Under the pieces are notes generated by a model that saw nothing but the letters and a program-made list of their open reading frames with translations, did no database searches and had not been told where the DNA came from. DNA of 64,000 bases, from NCBI GenBank assembly GCA_017647405.1, contig JAGCKR010000018.1, forward strand, positions 5,056 through 69,055, in the 5' to 3' direction. This DNA comes from Alphaproteobacteria bacterium (lineage in GTDB: Bacteria; Pseudomonadota; Alphaproteobacteria; CAAHEQ01; UBA3637). Shown here one piece after another: positions 1,169 through 48,904 of this stretch (its first letter is position 1; each line of letters begins with the position of its first letter). The translations under genes were made by a program, and so were the position numbers.

Positions 1169-4100
1169 TTATGGCGCAACAAACTCACCGCCAACGGCTT
1201 TATAAAAACGGATCAAATTCGTATAGAACGTTCCCAATGATTTAATCATTTGCATTTGCGCTTGCAACCGGTTTTGTTGGGCTTGTAAAACATCGGTATA
1301 ATCAATCAACCCGTTTTTATATTTATTTTTCATCAAGTTGGCTACCATATTAGCATGCGCATATGTTTCTTGAAGCAATTTATAATGCCTATTTTCCTGA
1401 TAAAGCGCCAAAATTGCATTTTTGATTTCATTCGCCGCCTCTAAAAGCGTTTGTTGATAAGCAAGAAGCATTTCTTCTTTCACCGCTTTTTGAATTTCAA
1501 CATTTTCTTTTAACGCGCCGAAATGAAATAATGGCGCCGTTATCCCCGGTGTAATGGTATGCATAAAACTATCTTTTTTCAAGAAACTGTTCCAATTTAA
1601 AGATTCAAAACCAAATAAGGCTGATAAACTTATTTTCGGAAACATATCAGCAATAGCCGCCCCCACTAAAGCATTTTGGGCAACAAGGTTTTCTTCCGCC
1701 GCTTTGACATCCGGTCGGTTCAAAAGAACCGTTGCCGAAATTTTTGTTATTTCATTTAAATCAAACGTCAATGGCCGAGATAACAAAGAGTTATCTTCTT
1801 TCTTTAATAAATCATTCACACTGCCGGGCAATTCTCCAACCGCCAACGCCAACGCGTTTTTGCTTTCATCCAACTGATACGTCAACTCTGTTAATGTTGC
1901 CGAAGTGTTTTTTAAAAGATAAAGTGCCTGTTCAAAAGATAACATGCTTGCAAGACCGGTTTTTTGTTTATCTTTTACTATGTTTGTCATTTCCTTTTGA
2001 AGCCGGATATTTGATTTTGTTTGCCGAACAAGTTCTTCCAACGTTCTGGTTTGAAGATATCTTAAAGCCACTTCTGCCGTTAAAGAAACCTGCATATTTT
2101 CAATAGCATAAAGAGAGGCTTTCACATTTGCTTTTTGAGCTTCAATACGCCGACGTTGCCCACCAAACAGATCTAACTCCCACGAAGCATCCAAACCTAT
2201 CTGATAATAATCTTCATTTAAAATTTCCCCCATGGTTTTACTGTTTTTGATATCATTATATGAACCAGACACATCAAAGGTTGGGAAAAGACCTGCTTTT
2301 TCAATTGAAAGACCGGCTCTTGTTTTTCGAAGTTGCCAAAAAGCCTGCTTATAAGTCGGGCTGTTTTTAAAAGCCTTTTCAATGAGGGCATCCAAAGATT
2401 TATCTTTTAAGGCTTTGGGTGTAAAAAGCGTTGGTTTCGTTAATGTTGTGTTTAATGCTTTTTTAAGTTCGGCTTCAGTAAAAAATTGAGGTTGCTGATA
2501 ATCCGGCCCTAATTGGCATGAAGACAAAAAACCACCCAATATCAAAATAACCAAACTCTTTACAATTATTTTTTTATTTTTATATCGCAAAGAAATTTTA
2601 TCAAATAAAGCAAAATATGCCGGCACAAATAAAATACCAATCATTGTTGCCACAATCATTCCACAAAAAACAGTTGTGCCAATAGAGCGTTGACTGGCAG
2701 CCCCTGCTCCGGTTGCAATAACCATGGGGAATGTTCCCAAAATAAACGTTAATGCCGTCATAACAACGGCGCGAAACCGTTCGGTAGACCCTTTTAAAGC
2801 AGCTGCCGAAACAGCCATACCGGATTGCTGATATTGATGCGTAAACTGAACAATTAAAATAGCATTTTTACTGGCAAGCCCAATCAGCATAACGATACCC
2901 AACTGCGCATAAATACTTAAACTCAAATCAAAAAGTTTTAACCCGATCAAAGCGCCACATATAGCAAAAATATTGCTTAAAATCACTGATACGGCAATCC
3001 ACCAACTTTCATAAAGGGCCACCAAGAAAAGATAGGAAAAAATAAGGGCCAGTGTAATTAAAATAACCGCTAATCCTTTTGTTTCAACTTCTTGAAGAGT
3101 TAACCCTGTCCAAAACAATGAAAAATCTTTTCCAAGAGTGGTAGAAAACCTTTCTAAAGCATTTAATGCCGTACCGGAACTCACATGCGGGGCTGTTTGA
3201 GCCGTCACACCGGCACTTAAATATTGATTAAACCGATAAATGATTTTTGGGCTAACAACAATTTTTTCCGTTAAAAAATTTTGAACCTGAATCAATTTTC
3301 CCAGAGCATTTGGCACATAAAGCTTCCCAATATCAGCCATATCTGCCCGATCTTGAAAATCAGCTTGAATAATCACTTTATTTAATTGCCCATCCACCGT
3401 GATATTATTCACATAGCGCGACCCTAAATTATTTTGCAAAACAGAGAACAAATCCGACAGTTGCACCTGAAAAGCGGATAATTTGGTTCGATCAATATCT
3501 AAATAAACATGCGGCGTATCAACCGTAAAGGGTGAAAAACCAAAAGAAAACAGTTTATTTTCATTAATAAAACGCAATGTTTTTTCTAAAGCCTCTGCCA
3601 ATTCTTCCGGTTTTGTTTCCTGATTAAGCGCCGAAAGTTCAAACCCAACTCCATCCGCATTGCCAACGCCCGGAATAGACGGCATGGCAAAAAAATTAAT
3701 ACTTACCCCGTGTTGGGAAGGAAACTGACTGTTTAATTCAGCTAATATACGCTCCATTGAAAGACCTTGTTTATCACGCTGATCCCAAGAGGTTAACACA
3801 ATGGCTGCCATCCCGATATTTTCACCACTTGCTGATAACATGCTGTTACCTGAAATACCGATAAAAGACTGAATACCCGAAATTTTACGCGCTTTTTCAG
3901 ATATTTCCTGAAGCAAGCTTTGTGTTTGATTGATGCTGGCTGTGGCCGGTAATTCTAAAGAAGCCATAATAATACCTTGATCTTCTTGTGGTACAAATCC
4001 TTTGGGAACAAAGTAAAATAAAACACCAATCAGACCAATAACAACGCTTGTGATCATCACTGTTATTTTCATATATCGACATAAGAAAGCAACACATTGA

Positions 4101-5674
4101 CCGTATTTTTTTTCTCCTTTATCTAAAAAAGAATTAAACAGAGTCATCCACCAAACAGGTTTTCTTGTTTTTTTCCCTAAAAAAATGGCACAAAGCGCCG
4201 GACTAAGCGTTAAAGCATTCACAGCGGAGAAAAAAACAGCCGTTGCCAACGTTACTGCAAATTGCTGATAAATTTTACCCGTCATGCCGGCCATTAAACC
4301 AACAGGGATAAAAATCGCCATCAAAACAAAGGTTGTTGCAATAACAGAAGAAGAAATATCTTTCATGGCCTGAACAGAAGCTTCAAAAGAATTCATCTGA
4401 CGATATTTAATCAGATATTGCACCCGCTCAACAACAACAATGGCATCATCTACCACAAGACCAATCGCCAAAATCATGGCAAATAATGTTAAAATATTAA
4501 TATCAAACCCTAAAAGATAAATAACAATAAACGTTGCAATTAACGAAACGGGAATGGTGATCATTGGAATCACTGTTGCCCAAAGATCTTGCAAAAAAAG
4601 ATAAACAATCGCCATCACCAAACAAAATGTTATCAAAAGGGTTATTAAAATGGCTTGGATACTTGCTTTAACAAATGTTGTTGAATCATAAACAATTTCA
4701 AATTTGATATCCTTGGGAAATGATTTTTCCAATACAGTCATTTCTTTTTTAAGATTTTTCATAATTTCCAAAGAATTGGAGTTAGGCAACTGCGACAAAG
4801 CCATCACAACTGATGGCTGATTATTAAAACTGGCATTGAGTTGATAACTATCGGCGCCGATTTCAAGACGGGCAATATCTTTAAGACGAATAACACCGCC
4901 TTTTTGATTGGCTCGCACAATAATTTCTTCAAAATCCTCCACGCTTGACAGCAACCCTTTTGTTGTAACAGAAAGAACCTGATTGGTGCCTTCCGGCGCC
5001 GGTGCAGATGAAAGCGAACCAACTCCCGCCACCTGATTTTGCGATTCAACTGCCTGAATAACCTCATTAGAGGTAAGGCCAACGCCATTCATTTTCGTTA
5101 CATCCAACCAAATACGAATGCTATGTTGCGGGCCATAAATATTCACATCTCCCATCCCGCTAATTCGTTTAAAGGGATTTTGAATGTGGGTAAACGCAAA
5201 GTTACTTAGATAAAGAGGACTATATGTTTTTTGAGGAGAGGTCAATGCAATAAATGCCAAAATATTTGCCGATTGTTGATGAACGTCTAATCCTTCTTGA
5301 ACAACAATCTGGGGCAAAAAAGGTTTTGCTTTATCCAGTCGATTTTCCACCTTAACCTGCGCAATATCCGGATTGGTGCCAACATCAAAGGTGATTGTTA
5401 ATGTATATTGGCCGGTATCAGTTGCCGTGGAAGACATATAAAGCATCCCTTCCACCCCGTTAATTTGATTTTCAATAGGTGTGGCAACCGTATCTTTTAA
5501 AACCAAAGCATTCGCCCCCGGATAATTGGCTGAAACAATAATTTGCGGAGGTGTAATATCAGGATATTGAGAAATAGGCAACACAATACCCGCAATCAAA
5601 CCTGCCAACACCATCACCAAAGCTATAACTCCCGCAAAATGAGGGCGATTGATAAAAAAGGAAGAAAAATTCAT
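1169..5674 (-). CDS. RND (AcrB/HAE1-type) efflux transporter fused in frame to a NodT/OprM-type outer-membrane factor lipoprotein
   Basis: The N-terminus MNFSSFFINRPHFAGVIALVMVLAG and ~1030 aa with multiple TM blocks are typical of AcrB-like pumps. Residues ~1035-1053 read KNKKIIVKSLVILILGGFLSS-C followed by QLGPDYQQP (lipobox plus the GPDY motif of OMF lipoproteins). A further ~450 aa of OMF-like sequence follows. There is no stop between the two parts. Confidence 0.85.
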   Translation of the reverse strand: MNFSSFFINRPHFAGVIALVMVLAGLIAGIVLPISQYPDITPPQIIVSANYPGANALVLKDTVATPIENQINGVEGMLYMSSTATDTGQYTLTITFDVGTNPDIAQVKVENRLDKAKPFLPQIVVQEGLDVHQQSANILAFIALTSPQKTYSPLYLSNFAFTHIQNPFKRISGMGDVNIYGPQHSIRIWLDVTKMNGVGLTSNEVIQAVESQNQVAGVGSLSSAPAPEGTNQVLSVTTKGLLSSVEDFEEIIVRANQKGGVIRLKDIARLEIGADSYQLNASFNNQPSVVMALSQLPNSNSLEIMKNLKKEMTVLEKSFPKDIKFEIVYDSTTFVKASIQAILITLLITFCLVMAIVYLFLQDLWATVIPMITIPVSLIATFIVIYLLGFDINILTLFAMILAIGLVVDDAIVVVERVQYLIKYRQMNSFEASVQAMKDISSSVIATTFVLMAIFIPVGLMAGMTGKIYQQFAVTLATAVFFSAVNALTLSPALCAIFLGKKTRKPVWWMTLFNSFLDKGEKKYGQCVAFLCRYMKITVMITSVVIGLIGVLFYFVPKGFVPQEDQGIIMASLELPATASINQTQSLLQEISEKARKISGIQSFIGISGNSMLSASGENIGMAAIVLTSWDQRDKQGLSMERILAELNSQFPSQHGVSINFFAMPSIPGVGNADGVGFELSALNQETKPEELAEALEKTLRFINENKLFSFGFSPFTVDTPHVYLDIDRTKLSAFQVQLSDLFSVLQNNLGSRYVNNITVDGQLNKVIIQADFQDRADMADIGKLYVPNALGKLIQVQNFLTEKIVVSPKIIYRFNQYLSAGVTAQTAPHVSSGTALNALERFSTTLGKDFSLFWTGLTLQEVETKGLAVILITLALIFSYLFLVALYESWWIAVSVILSNIFAICGALIGLKLFDLSLSIYAQLGIVMLIGLASKNAILIVQFTHQYQQSGMAVSAAALKGSTERFRAVVMTALTFILGTFPMVIATGAGAASQRSIGTTVFCGMIVATMIGILFVPAYFALFDKISLRYKNKKIIVKSLVILILGGFLSSCQLGPDYQQPQFFTEAELKKALNTTLTKPTLFTPKALKDKSLDALIEKAFKNSPTYKQAFWQLRKTRAGLSIEKAGLFPTFDVSGSYNDIKNSKTMGEILNEDYYQIGLDASWELDLFGGQRRRIEAQKANVKASLYAIENMQVSLTAEVALRYLQTRTLEELVRQTKSNIRLQKEMTNIVKDKQKTGLASMLSFEQALYLLKNTSATLTELTYQLDESKNALALAVGELPGSVNDLLKKEDNSLLSRPLTFDLNEITKISATVLLNRPDVKAAEENLVAQNALVGAAIADMFPKISLSALFGFESLNWNSFLKKDSFMHTITPGITAPLFHFGALKENVEIQKAVKEEMLLAYQQTLLEAANEIKNAILALYQENRHYKLLQETYAHANMVANLMKNKYKNGLIDYTDVLQAQQNRLQAQMQMIKSLGTFYTNLIRFYKAVGGEFVAP

Positions 5675-6759
5675 TGCTCTAATCCTTCAGCTTGTTTGCC
5701 AATTTGAAAATTTGATATCGGAACAGTTATAAGCGCCTCCCCTTCCATTAAACCAGATTTAATCCAATATTGATTCCCGATAGATGCTCCGATTTCAACA
5801 GCCTGTTTTTGAATAATCCCCTCTTTTAAAAGCGTGGCCGTGGCTCCATTTGAGGTTAAGGTGATCCAATTTTTATTAACTAAAATCCCTTTTTTCGAAT
5901 ATAAAAAACGCACTTCTATATATGCCCCCGGAACCAAAAGTTTTTGATCATTTGGAACATCGATAAAAAAGGAAAGTGAATCCGTTGATTTATCCACGCG
6001 ATTATTATGAACTACACGAAACTTTTCAAACTCCATGAGTTTGCCATCTGATAACATCACTTGTAAAAGGGCGGTATCAAAATTAAAAATATCCCCTTTA
6101 TAAATAGACATCGGTATTGAAAAAACCAATCGGATGGGGGAAAATAAAATAATTGTAGCTAAGGACGGACTTTCCGGTGAAAGATATTCCCCGATTGTTG
6201 CGGTAATATCCCCTACCCATCCACTAATCGGTGCTTGAATAACAGTGTAATTATAAATCGTTTGAGCTTGATTTTCAGCTGCCAACGCCTTTTCATATAC
6301 GGCTTTTGAGGACTCATATTTTGTTTTAGCTTCTTCTAACTCGGTAAATGAAATAGCTTTTTTATCCGTTTTAAGCATCCGCTCATAATAAAGTTGATCA
6401 TTTTCTTGTTGCGCTTTTGCTTGTAAAACGGCTTCTTTTGCTTGTTTTAACTCAGCTAACGGAATTTTTTGATCCAATAAAAATAGCGTTTCACCCTTTT
6501 GCACCTCTGCGCCCGATTGCACATGAACTTCCTTTAAATATGCCGATAAATAAGGAACAACGGCCACGGCTTGAACCGCTTCAACCGAACCGATAAATTT
6601 TTGAATATAGGTGAACGATTGTTCTTTTAAATAATGCACCGGAACAGTCAATCGTTGGCTTTTTTCAAGGGGTTGATTTTCAGAAGTCCTTGATTTAAAA
6701 TTAAAAAACAACCCTATTATCAATAAAAAACCTAAAAGAAATATAAAAACTTTTTTCAT
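5671..6759 (-). CDS. RND efflux periplasmic adaptor (membrane fusion protein, HlyD/AcrA family)
   Basis: N-terminal membrane anchor, lipoyl-like motif (VQKGETLFLLDQ), coiled-coil segment and beta-barrel-like C-terminus. A 4-nt ATGA overlap with the downstream RND gene indicates an operon. Confidence 0.85.
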   Translation of the reverse strand: MKKVFIFLLGFLLIIGLFFNFKSRTSENQPLEKSQRLTVPVHYLKEQSFTYIQKFIGSVEAVQAVAVVPYLSAYLKEVHVQSGAEVQKGETLFLLDQKIPLAELKQAKEAVLQAKAQQENDQLYYERMLKTDKKAISFTELEEAKTKYESSKAVYEKALAAENQAQTIYNYTVIQAPISGWVGDITATIGEYLSPESPSLATIILFSPIRLVFSIPMSIYKGDIFNFDTALLQVMLSDGKLMEFEKFRVVHNNRVDKSTDSLSFFIDVPNDQKLLVPGAYIEVRFLYSKKGILVNKNWITLTSNGATATLLKEGIIQKQAVEIGASIGNQYWIKSGLMEGEALITVPISNFQIGKQAEGLEQ

Positions 6760-6909
6760 TTAATACCCCCCTTAACAAAAAGGAAGCATTAAAAAAAGAA
6801 TCAAGAGAGATTATTCTTCAGGCTATACATTTCTCTAAACATTTCTCTAAAAAAAGAGAATTATTTTTTACCTCCTTTCCACAAAAAGAAAATGAATCAA
6901 AATTATTTC

Positions 6910-6938
6910 TTGACAAATGAAACAAATCATCTCAAAAT
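6910..6938 (+). promoter_or_regulatory. Putative sigma70-type promoter of the cysS leader transcript
   Basis: TTGACA (6910-6915), 17-nt spacer, CAAAAT (6933-6938). Confidence 0.4.
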
Positions 6939-6963
6939 AAAGAAAAACTTAAAAAGGATTCAA

Positions 6964-7011
6964 ATGAATAATTTAAATATGAAATGTTGTTGCTGTTGTC
7001 ATTTTCTCTAA
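6964..7011 (+). CDS. Candidate leader peptide MNNLNMKCCCCCHFL (five consecutive Cys codons) upstream of cysS
   Basis: ATG at 6964 is preceded by AAGGA (6954-6958, 5-nt spacing). Codons TGT TGT TGC TGT TGT occupy 6985-6999 and the TAA stop is at 7009-7011. A Cys run is not expected from the AT-rich background composition. Confidence 0.55.
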   Translation: MNNLNMKCCCCCHFL

Positions 7012-7053
7012 GCCTTGCTGCCAGAGTTGTTTTCAGCAACACCATTTTCACTT

Positions 7054-7082
7054 AGAAGGCAGCCTCTTTCGCTGCTTTTTTT
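7054..7082 (+). terminator. Intrinsic terminator (attenuator) between the Cys leader ORF and cysS
   Basis: GCAGC (7059-7063) pairs with GCTGC (7071-7075) around a 7-nt loop and is followed by seven T (7076-7082). An upstream AGAAG can extend the stem onto the T tract. It lies 27 nt before the cysS ATG. Confidence 0.5.
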
Positions 7083-7108
7083 AATTTTAAACACAAAGGA
7101 AACAAAAA

Positions 7109-8530
7109 ATGAGCGTATATTTATATAACACAAAGACCAGAGAGAAAGAAGAGTTTAAACCACTGAATGAAAAAATGGTCACAATGTATTGCTGTGGTCC
7201 AACCGTATATTCTTATGCGCATATCGGCAATCTTCGCACGTATATTTTTGAAGATTTGATTGCCAACACCCTTCGTCTTGCCGGCTATAAGGTTAAACAC
7301 GTGATGAATGTAACTGATGTCGGGCATTTAACAAGTGATGAAGATGAAGGCGAAGATAAAATGCTTGTTGCCGCTGAAAAAGAGAAAAAAAGTGTGATGG
7401 AAATTGCCCGTCATTATGAAGAAACTTTTTTCAGACACACATCCGAACTCGGCCTTAAACGGCCAACCATTATTTGCCGGGCAACAGAGCATATTGAAGA
7501 TATGATTAAATTTGTGAAATCCTTGGAAGATAAAGGTTTTGCTTATTTTTCAAATGGGAACGTTTATTTTGATACATCAAAATTTGAAAAATATGGTTGT
7601 CTTTCAGGGCAAAATCGCGAAGATTTAAAACATGGAGCCAGAACTGAACAAGATACCAATAAACGCAATGCTTCCGATTTTGTTCTTTGGTTTACTTCCT
7701 CCAAATTTGAAAACCAAATTTTACAATGGGATAGCCCTTGGGGACGTGGCTACCCTGGATGGCATATTGAATGCTCTGCCATGTCCACTAAATATTTAGG
7801 AGAAAGAATTGATATTCATTGTGGCGGTATTGACCATATTCCTGTTCACCATGAAAACGAAATTGCCCAAAGTGAAGCGCATTTAGGACACGAATGGGTG
7901 AATTTTTGGATTCACATGGAGTTTTTAAACACAAAAGCCGGTAAAATGAGCAAATCCACCGGTGGAAAAACAACGATTGACTCTTTAAGAGAAATGGGCT
8001 ATCTGCCTATGCATTATAAATATTTCACCCTCACCTCTCATTATCGCAGTTCTGCCGTTTTTTCAGAGGAAGCAATGGATGGGGCTAAAAAGGCTTATGA
8101 AAACCTTTGCGATTATGTGGCAACTTTTAAGGCAAAAACAAAGAATACATCCTTAACAGCCGAAGAACAAGCAGAGGTTGAAACCTTAAAAAATGAGTTT
8201 AATGCTTATTTGTTTGATGATATTAAAACACCGCTTGCCATTTCTCACATGTGGGGTGTTGCAAAGGATAACAAAAAATCAGAAAATGTTCGCCTTGCCT
8301 ATTTATTGCATGTGGACAATGTGTTAAATCTTGAACTTAAAAACGTTGAAGCCAAAAAAGAACAGGCAGTTGAAATCACACCGGAAATTGCCGATCTTTT
8401 AGAGCAACGAAAAGAAGCAAGAGCCACCAAAAACTGGGCAAAATCAGATGAAATTCGCGATAAACTGGCAGCTCTTGGCGTGGGTGTTAAAGACTTGCCA
8501 AATAAAGAAATTGAACTCATCAAGCTTTAA
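7109..8530 (+). CDS. cysS: Cysteinyl-tRNA synthetase
   Basis: Class I signatures HIGN (YAHIGNLRTY) and KMSKS (GKMSKSTG), typical length, and an AAAGGA SD upstream. Confidence 0.97.
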   Translation: MSVYLYNTKTREKEEFKPLNEKMVTMYCCGPTVYSYAHIGNLRTYIFEDLIANTLRLAGYKVKHVMNVTDVGHLTSDEDEGEDKMLVAAEKEKKSVMEIARHYEETFFRHTSELGLKRPTIICRATEHIEDMIKFVKSLEDKGFAYFSNGNVYFDTSKFEKYGCLSGQNREDLKHGARTEQDTNKRNASDFVLWFTSSKFENQILQWDSPWGRGYPGWHIECSAMSTKYLGERIDIHCGGIDHIPVHHENEIAQSEAHLGHEWVNFWIHMEFLNTKAGKMSKSTGGKTTIDSLREMGYLPMHYKYFTLTSHYRSSAVFSEEAMDGAKKAYENLCDYVATFKAKTKNTSLTAEEQAEVETLKNEFNAYLFDDIKTPLAISHMWGVAKDNKKSENVRLAYLLHVDNVLNLELKNVEAKKEQAVEITPEIADLLEQRKEARATKNWAKSDEIRDKLAALGVGVKDLPNKEIELIKL

Positions 8531-47912: not shown

Positions 47913-48698
47913 ATGAAACAATATCTTGACCTTTTGGAACATATTATGACAAACGGCGCAGACAAACCAAACCGCACCGGAATTGACACCCGATCGGTTT
48001 TCGGGGCTCAAATGCGATTTGATCTTTCCAAAGGGTTTCCGCTTGTGACCACAAAAAAAGTTCATTTAAAATCCATTATTCACGAACTGATTTGGTTATT
48101 ATCCGGCAACACAAATATTAAATATTTAAAGGATAACAACGTGCGCATTTGGAATGAATGGGCTGATGAAAACGGTGATTTAGGCCCTGTTTATGGCGCT
48201 CAATGGCGCAATTTTAACGGCCAAGGCATTGATCAGATTAAAGATGTTGTGAACCGGCTTAAAACCAACCCGAATGACAGACGCATGATTGTAAGCGCTT
48301 GGAATCCGGCACAAATTGATCAAATGGCGCTTCCGCCTTGCCATGCTTTTTTCCAATTTTACACGGCTAACGGCAAACTTTCTTGCCAACTTTATCAACG
48401 ATCCTGTGATATGTTTTTAGGGGTACCGTTTAATATTGCTTCTTATTCGCTTCTCACGATGATGATGGCGCAAGTGACCGGATTTGAACCAGGCGAATTT
48501 GTTCACACCCTTGGTGATGCGCATATTTATCACAACCATTTTGATCAGGTGAAAGAACAACTTTCTCGCACACCATTTGATTTACCGCAAATGAAAATCA
48601 ATCCGGCTGTTCAAAATATTGATGACTTTAAATATGAAGATTTTGAACTTGTTAATTATGTTTCTCACGGGAAATTGGAAGGCGTTGTTGCCGTTTAA
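47913..48698 (+). CDS. thyA: Thymidylate synthase (ThyA type)
   Basis: [10 protein letters not shown] and [12 protein letters not shown] (catalytic Cys) motifs. Confidence 0.97.
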
Positions 48699-48709
48699 GG
48701 AGAAGGAAT

Positions 48710-48904
48710 ATGAAACATATTGTTGCTGCTCTTTTAATTTTAATGATTTTTAAAGCAATTATTTATATCTTTTTTCCAAACGGCGTGAAATTTTTAGCGC
48801 AAAAAATGGCAGATACAGATAATCTTTCTTATAAAATGTATGGGTGGCTGCTTATCTTTATATCTTTAATTATCTGGCTCAGTTATTTAAGATATCAATT
48901 TTAA
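48710..48904 (+). CDS. Small membrane protein (two TM segments)
   Basis: 64-aa ORF with an AGGAGAAGGA SD, immediately after thyA. Confidence 0.5.
   Translation: MKHIVAALLILMIFKAIIYIFFPNGVKFLAQKMADTDNLSYKMYGWLLIFISLIIWLSYLRYQF

Follow-up and report, generated by a model that had tools for sequence, protein, structure and literature searches.

A predicted leader-peptide attenuator with tandem Cys codons upstream of cysS in a lineage of uncultured gut bacteria

How is the cysteine--tRNA ligase gene cysS controlled when a short open reading frame (ORF) with five consecutive Cys codons and an intrinsic terminator lie between its promoter and its start codon? The question is raised by a 64,000-nt stretch of contig JAGCKR010000018.1 (assembly GCA_017647405.1, Alphaproteobacteria bacterium), called the window below, in which the element under study occupies the plus strand just upstream of cysS. 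An earlier note on this DNA had proposed that the element is a ribosome-mediated attenuator that senses Cys-tRNA(Cys), with the hexamer GCUGCC as its antiterminator, and our analysis supports this proposal through conservation in 43 sequences, compensatory base changes and constrained folding. We put the probability at about 85% that cysS is controlled here by a classical ribosome-mediated (leader-peptide) transcription attenuator, in which low Cys-tRNA(Cys) would lead to more cysteinyl-tRNA synthetase (CysRS). The core of this reading, including the predicted pairing of GCUGCC at 7017–7022 as antiterminator with GGCAGC at 7058–7063, is strongly supported by the sequence comparisons described here.

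The promoter, Shine-Dalgarno (SD) sequence, leader ORF, Cys codons and pairing segments were all found, on inspection of the sequence, exactly where the earlier note had placed them. A promoter scan identifies a sigma-70-type promoter at 6910–6938 (TTGACA at 6910–6915, a 17-nt spacer and CAAAAT at 6933–6938; 10 of 12 matches), from the position of which transcription would be expected to start near 6945. The SD sequence AAGGA (6954–6958), 5 nt 5' of the ATG at 6964, leads an ORF of 15 codons plus stop (6964–7011, TAA at 7009–7011) with the product MNNLNMKCCCCCHFL, and the five tandem codons TGT TGT TGC TGT TGT at 6985–6999 are the proposed sensing codons. Beyond the stop comes the 5' strand of the putative antiterminator, GCUGCC, which starts 8 nt and ends 13 nt past the first base of the stop codon. 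The intrinsic terminator (7054–7082, −11.6 kcal/mol) was returned by a terminator scan as a 10-pair hairpin at 7054–7080 and consists of AGAAGGCAGC at 7054–7063, a 7-nt loop, GCUGCUUUUU at 7071–7080 and a U-run to 7082; within it the 5' arm GGCAGC (7058–7063) faces GCTGC (7071–7075), followed by T7 at 7076–7082. The cysS gene itself (7109–8530, 473 aa; TIGR00435, 456 bits against a cut-off of 340) has its own SD sequence, AGGA at 7097–7100. No promoter-like site was found by the promoter scan in 6940–7108, and the space between the terminator and cysS is too small for a promoter, with none predicted there. As no promoter lies between leader and gene, cysS expression depends on read-through of the terminator.

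The run of Cys codons is not a product of base composition, as the earlier note had also held. The two strands of the 64-kb window together hold a single (TGY)5 run, against about 0.003 occurrences expected from the composition by our own arithmetic, and this singularity, together with the recurrence of the run at the same place in close relatives, excludes chance as its explanation. A covariance model, R1, built from the 43 sequences introduced below, likewise finds a single copy of the element in the window (6971–7094, 91 bits). Elsewhere in the window, at 48658–48753, a weaker Cys run (TGT TGC TGC, '...YETYCCCSFNFNDF') is present in an ORF that overlaps the 3' end of a thymidylate synthase-like gene; it has no SD sequence and no match to R1, and is probably a chance occurrence.

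The structural parts by which leader-peptide attenuators are recognised are all found here: a leader ORF that has a start codon and a ribosome-binding site to itself, tandem codons cognate to the regulated gene (Cys and cysS), an intrinsic terminator between the ORF and the structural gene, an alternative antiterminator pairing with the 5' arm of that terminator, and a stop codon so placed that, given the footprint size generally attributed to ribosomes, a terminating ribosome would mask the antiterminator strand and a Cys-stalled one would not. From this arrangement we infer leader translation, ribosome stalling, a footprint geometry, termination and read-through that would work as follows. 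Transcription would begin near 6945, from the TTGACA/CAAAAT promoter, and a ribosome would translate the 15-codon leader. With Cys-tRNA(Cys) plentiful, the ribosome would reach the UAA at 7009–7011 and its footprint would cover GCUGCC at 7017–7022, leaving GGCAGC at 7058–7063 free to pair with GCUGC at 7071–7075, and polymerase would stop at the U7 tract, about 26 nt before cysS. With Cys-tRNA(Cys) scarce, the ribosome would stall on one of the five Cys codons and GCUGCC would be exposed; it would pair with GGCAGC once that arm had been made, no terminator would form, polymerase would enter cysS, and CysRS would rise.

The earlier note had pointed to the regions upstream of related cysS genes as a place where this model could fail, and there the short Cys-run ORF and the complementary segments proved to be kept, with compensatory changes in a few lineages. 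A protein scan with CysRS over one genome per species yielded 80 loci (given L numbers below). The nearest matches, with CysRS 76–93% identical, all come from metagenome-assembled genomes (MAGs) of uncultured bacteria that live in the gut of sheep, deer, yak, mouse or human; these genomes carry the labels Alphaproteobacteria, 'Acetobacter sp.', Rhodospirillales or Rickettsiales, and Rhodobacterales in no case. A short ORF with 2–5 tandem Cys codons ends 85–103 nt 5' of the cysS ATG in 42 of the 42 close loci that include upstream sequence. The leader was absent from the 17 alphaproteobacterial loci listed at 53–62% CysRS identity, and from the spirochaete, Elusimicrobia and Cloacimonadota loci of the same scan.

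Within this clade, for which all statistics of anatomy, pairing and folding refer to 43 aligned sequences, the complete unit of promoter, SD sequence, ATG, 2–5 tandem Cys codons, stop, GCUGCC and terminator is kept across the whole range of 76–93% CysRS identity. A perfect TTGACA stands at a conserved distance 5' of the leader ATG in 35 sequences, the ATG itself is present in all 43, and an SD-like motif precedes it by 3–12 nt in 42. The leader peptide is 12–16 aa long, with three Cys codons in 18 sequences, four in 13, five in eight and two in four. The TG of these codons is invariant and the wobble base varies (TGT 113, TGC 41), and apart from the Cys run the peptide shows no conservation. 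From the last Cys codon to the stop there are 2–4 sense codons (median 3), and the stop is constant in position and variable in identity (TAA 29, TAG 9, TGA 5). Near-invariant GCUGCC follows 4–7 nt 3' of the stop and in most sequences ends at +13 or +14 from the first base of the stop. About 45 nt 3' of the stop come AAGGCAGC, a loop, GCUGC and a U-run with a median length of 7, the last lying 21–36 nt 5' of the cysS ATG in every sequence. Conservation at the level of codons, together with the fixed stop position and the retained SD sequence and ATG, is the pattern that a translated sensor ORF should leave in an alignment, and it would be unexpected both of a non-coding structured RNA and of a functional peptide.

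The genes that flank the leader–cysS unit differ among the relatives, with at least 12 upstream gene families represented, and the RND adaptor and Nudix neighbours of the window are found beside cysS in none of them. Since the flanking genes are not conserved, the leader evidently travels with cysS.

The two helices that are central to the model are both conserved and are matched in strength, with median duplex energies of −12.7 kcal/mol for the antiterminator and −13.0 kcal/mol for the terminator. The terminator helix pairs in 90.9% of the cells of the alignment, with 22 cells changed on both sides; none of 500 shuffles equals this value, and registers slid along the alignment reach 40–79%. 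It is the only helix in the RNAalifold consensus, a method that is unable to show mutually exclusive helices. The antiterminator duplex (−12.5 kcal/mol in the window) pairs in its core in about 97% of cells, against 13–56% in slid registers. Compensatory changes are seen as ACUGCC/GGCAGU in L036, GCUCU/AGAGC in L012, L014, L015 and L017, and CGCCUU/AAGGCG in L002, and in L010, L013 and L035 the helix is lengthened to CGCUGCC/GGCAGCG.

Two smaller hairpins have moderate support. P1 is a weak hairpin at 7004–7026 in folds of the window, where UUCU/CUCU at 7004–7009 (the last sense codons and the stop region) pairs with AGAG at 7023–7026, and an inner pairing AGC/GCU (7011–7013 with 7017–7019) encloses part of the antiterminator strand. 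In the relatives it takes the form of CUCC, in the last sense codons, with GGAG directly 3' of GCUGCC; 78% of cells pair, and pairs change through GC/UA swaps in the L022–L070 group and to AGU/ACU in L036. The register of P1 shifts between sequences and remains ambiguous, and a role as an anti-antiterminator when no ribosome is present is possible. P2, GUUGUU-UUC-AGCAAC at 7026–7040 in the window fold, lies between the antiterminator strand and the terminator. Most relatives have AGCUG-UUUU-CAGCU in its place; 70.7% of cells pair, 13 are changed on both sides, and none of 500 shuffles reaches 70.7%. P2 may serve as a spacer or as a pause hairpin.

A further pairing, of the Cys codons themselves, had been offered in the earlier note as one of the 1:2 type. 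The segment TGTTGCTG at 6988–6995 is indeed complementary to CAGCAACA at 7034–7041, and the two are paired in the minimum-energy fold of the window sequence. As a conserved helix this pairing, examined across the 43 sequences with 7034–7048 as the partner segment, was rejected: across the clade it pairs in 50% of cells, no better than in shuffles or slid registers.

Folding with the ribosome-covered segments masked, a check that the earlier note had suggested, showed the window switching between antiterminator and terminator in the way the model requires. With no ribosome, the Cys-codon region is predicted to pair with 7034–7048, GCUGCC is enclosed and the terminator forms. With the A site on Cys codon 1, 3 or 5, the GCUGCC:GGCAGC duplex is the minimum-energy structure of the transcript before the 3' arm of the terminator has been made. 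With the A site on the stop, GCUGCC is masked, and the hairpin at 7026–7040 and the terminator form in the full-length transcript. Over the clade, the terminator arm is predicted to be sequestered upstream with a probability of 0.93–0.97 when the ribosome is stalled and of 0.65 when it has reached the stop; the direction is right, and the modelled separation of the two states is not clean.

Several points weigh against the attenuator model. In many relatives, folding with the ribosome at the stop still leaves part of the terminator arm paired upstream (the mean of 0.65 just given), and in many the antiterminator is the predicted structure even with no ribosome on the RNA (median 0.72). The antiterminator is near invariant and its covariation comes from few lineages, with changes on both sides in only 7 cells, a sparseness that arises because the strand is so conserved. 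When each sequence is compared with its own shuffles, the share that the antiterminator duplex outdoes has a median of about 97% and falls to 67% in L033. For the point at which a ribosome footprint ends on its 3' side, a generally assumed value was used, +12 to +15 from the A site. Finally, the case is computational throughout, and the carriers are uncultured and known only as MAGs.

What else might such a segment be? Since the SD sequence and start codon are good and the ORF is conserved in 43 genomes, it might be an independent small-protein gene with its own terminator, encoding a Cys-rich micropeptide with, for example, metal or redox activity, and its adjacency to cysS might be incidental or serve to provide a promoter. 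Leader peptides that act in trans do exist, peTrpL of Sinorhizobium being one example (PMC7298713). Such a peptide would hardly be expected to conserve only its Cys run and the nucleotides before its stop while varying in Cys number from 2 to 5, nor would its gene be held 85–103 nt 5' of cysS while the neighbouring genes vary. A plain small gene would also have no need of the conserved copy of the terminator 3' arm that directly follows the stop, and cysS, which has no promoter of its own, would still have to be reached by read-through of the terminator. We therefore consider a small-protein gene very improbable. The same codon-like conservation, with variation at the Cys wobble position, a fixed stop position with three stop identities, and a retained ATG and SD sequence, argues against a riboregulator that works without translation, in which the leader RNA would bind a ligand, a tRNA in the manner of a T-box, or a protein, and so choose between antiterminator and terminator, the ORF being a by-product. 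An antiterminator/terminator alternative is, by itself, no proof that a ribosome is involved, and cysS of Firmicutes is typically under the control of Cys T-boxes (PMC2940859). In this element, however, the distance from the stop to the terminator arm is only about 45 nt, RNAalifold returns the terminator and no conserved complex fold, and the Rfam search gave no family at threshold and no T-box, so that we would be surprised if such a regulator were at work.

The imperfect separation of states in the thermodynamic modelling of some relatives is what might be expected if the hairpin and U7 were simply a constitutive partial terminator or an RNA-stability element, with the Cys run affecting translation of the leader and no switch being made. 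That explanation leaves unaccounted for the presence, in 43 species, of 2–5 cognate codons before the gene of the cognate synthetase, and also the near-invariant GCUGCC within one ribosome footprint of the stop, and we give it very little weight.

Is such an element new? The pheST operon of Escherichia coli, with its pheM leader, is the textbook precedent of an aminoacyl-tRNA synthetase gene under leader-peptide attenuation. The element resembles this attenuator, and those of trp, his, leu and thr, in having a short ORF rich in the cognate codon with its stop just 5' of the antiterminator strand, and in its mutually exclusive antiterminator and terminator followed by a U-run. Distances from the presumed transcription start (stop at about +65, termination at about +138) are also reminiscent of the trp leader of about 140 nt. 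It differs from these leaders in amino acid, sequence and lineage, and, unlike them, shows no evident conserved 1:2 pause hairpin over the regulatory codons. With a permissive E-value over 6500–7400, Rfam gave no family at threshold, the best leader-type match being Phe_leader, whose 18 bits (E = 3.4) fall well short of the gathering score of 55 and do not make the element a member. Over the whole window, Rfam at gathering score likewise gave nothing relevant to the element. No T-box was matched at E up to 10 in 6500–7400, nor at the gathering score in the whole window.

The earlier note was unaware of any described Cys-codon attenuator of cysS in proteobacteria, and in this it is contradicted by the uORFC-8-2 motif, published in 2021, with 145 examples that all lie upstream of cysS in Rhodobacterales (Brewer et al. 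2021, RNA Biol 18:2417, PMC8632094). Its authors describe an upstream ORF (uORF) carrying a pair of tandem Cys codons, together with two stems and a U-run, and read the motif as a case of ribosome-mediated attenuation (PMC8632094). Both elements stand directly upstream of cysS in the class Alphaproteobacteria, and in both a short uORF that has a conserved AUG and contains tandem Cys codons is accompanied on the 3' side by a hairpin and U-run; the proposed mechanism, stalling at Cys codons that leads to read-through, is the same and is a prediction in both cases. In uORFC-8-2, however, which is confined to Rhodobacterales, there are two Cys codons, usually at positions 14–15 and with UGC dominant. 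The element described here belongs to an uncultured gut lineage with no carrier labelled Rhodobacterales, and has 2–5 Cys codons at about positions 7–13 of a 12–16-aa peptide, with UGU dominant (113:41). The first stem of uORFC-8-2 contains the Cys codons, whereas in the gut clade such a stem appears in the fold of the window and is not conserved in the relatives. The second stem of uORFC-8-2 is a terminator with a U-run, and a terminator is present in the gut clade too. The antiterminator strand directly 3' of the stop is a further difference on the side of the gut-clade element. We regard the latter as a new sequence family of a known kind, set apart from uORFC-8-2 on comparison with the published description.

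Cys codons in short upstream ORFs are also known from more distant groups. The cysS mRNA of Deinococcus deserti encodes a 10-aa leaderless peptide with two Cys (de Groot et al. 2014, PMC4007540), and in Actinobacteria leader ORFs with Cys runs precede cys operons (Seliverstov 2005, PMC1262725; Canestrari 2020, bioRxiv 10.1101/834739). These share with the gut-clade element a run of Cys codons in a short upstream ORF that senses the supply of cysteine or Cys-tRNA. In Actinobacteria the ORFs are leaderless, stand before operons for the biosynthesis of cysteine and have no obvious intrinsic terminators, in contrast to the gut-clade element, which is led by an SD sequence, has a clear terminator and antiterminator, and precedes a synthetase gene. 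The Cys T-boxes of Firmicutes (cysS, cysES) are alike in the regulated gene, in the signal, which is the charging of tRNACys, and in the output, terminator versus antiterminator; a T-box senses uncharged tRNA directly, in a leader of about 200 nt or more, whereas the proposed sensor of the gut clade is a translating ribosome. Replacement of T-boxes by leader peptides has a precedent in the hisS paralogues of bacilli (Naville and Gautheret, PMC2965389).

Other cysS leaders came to light as well. At six Clostridium loci returned by the CysRS scan an ORF led by an SD sequence and containing 4–6 tandem Cys codons (for example MVMCCCCCCYNII and MTCCCCCLLVNLILLYDDSNKSAFLR) lies 5' of cysS (L063:2799–2928, L065:2715–2847, L068:2737–2874, L074 and L079 at about 2837–2982, and L078:2767–2901). 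The folds of these leaders correspond to textbook 1:2 / 2:3 / 3:4 attenuators: a GCAACA segment farther 3' is the partner of the Cys codons, the adjacent GUCUGC is that of the terminator 5' arm, and after these comes a strong terminator with a U-run. None of the six contains a T-box at the Rfam gathering score, and no description of a clostridial cysS leader peptide was found in the literature searched. Among Alphaproteobacteria, a plasmid of Sphingomonas parapaucimobilis carries an ORF with tandem TGC TGC upstream of cysS, followed by two GC-rich hairpins (L081:354–449), Sinorhizobium meliloti has a short Cys-containing ORF, MKTVICIICRNIIR, in this position (L083:331–375), and two Paracoccus loci have an ORF, MKAGTATIRCIITG, with a single Cys (L084 and L085:351–395). 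The Paracoccus chromid leaders were considered as examples of uORFC-8-2 and rejected, since their 14-codon uORF contains just one Cys and they lack a U-run terminator. Model R1, searched against all the other loci, matched none of the cysS leaders of Clostridium, Paracoccus, Sphingomonas or Sinorhizobium, and these therefore give no evidence of homology to the gut-clade family.

The CysRS encoded in the window is 50–53% identical to that of Clostridium and 48% to that of Vescimonas, and only 41–44% to those of Sphingomonas, Burkholderia or Vibrio, which suggests that the gut-clade cysS gene may have a Firmicutes-like origin. Tentatively, and with rather less than even confidence, we suggest that attenuation of cysS by Cys leaders was invented or spread repeatedly, in Rhodobacterales, in the gut clade and in Clostridium sensu stricto, where it would have replaced the usual Cys T-box. 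On the CysRS identities, cysS, and perhaps the regulatory idea with it, may have come from a Firmicutes-like donor. As no similarity of sequence is detectable between the clostridial and gut-clade leaders, convergence is the simpler reading.

The mechanism itself is conceptually not new. What the locus offers is a clean and densely sampled case of predicted classical attenuation on an aminoacyl-tRNA synthetase gene, with 43 species from an uncultured gut lineage in which regulation had not been studied before. Its geometry is tight, the last Cys and the stop being three codons apart at the median and the antiterminator ending within one footprint of the stop, and this makes it a compact model of how ribosome position may be turned into a transcription decision, and the element could be used as a part in sensors of Cys-tRNA charging. 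Together, the Rhodobacterales motif, the clostridial leaders and the ORFs of Sphingomonas, Sinorhizobium and Paracoccus suggest that leader-peptide control of cysS is much wider than Rfam annotation indicates.

The DNA on the other side of the leader promoter carries a divergent operon for a resistance-nodulation-division (RND) efflux system. An RND adaptor gene (5671–6759) precedes a single ORF of 1501 aa on the minus strand (1169–5674), in which an RND efflux permease (residues 1–1028) is fused to a NodT-type outer-membrane factor (residues 1049–1496). The fusion is unusual, and may be real or an artefact of assembly or a frameshift. The divergent intergenic region that separates this operon from the promoter of the cysS leader contains a 12-nt sequence repeated perfectly in tandem (CATTTCTCTAAA twice, 6828–6851), which could be an operator of the efflux operon or a simple duplication.

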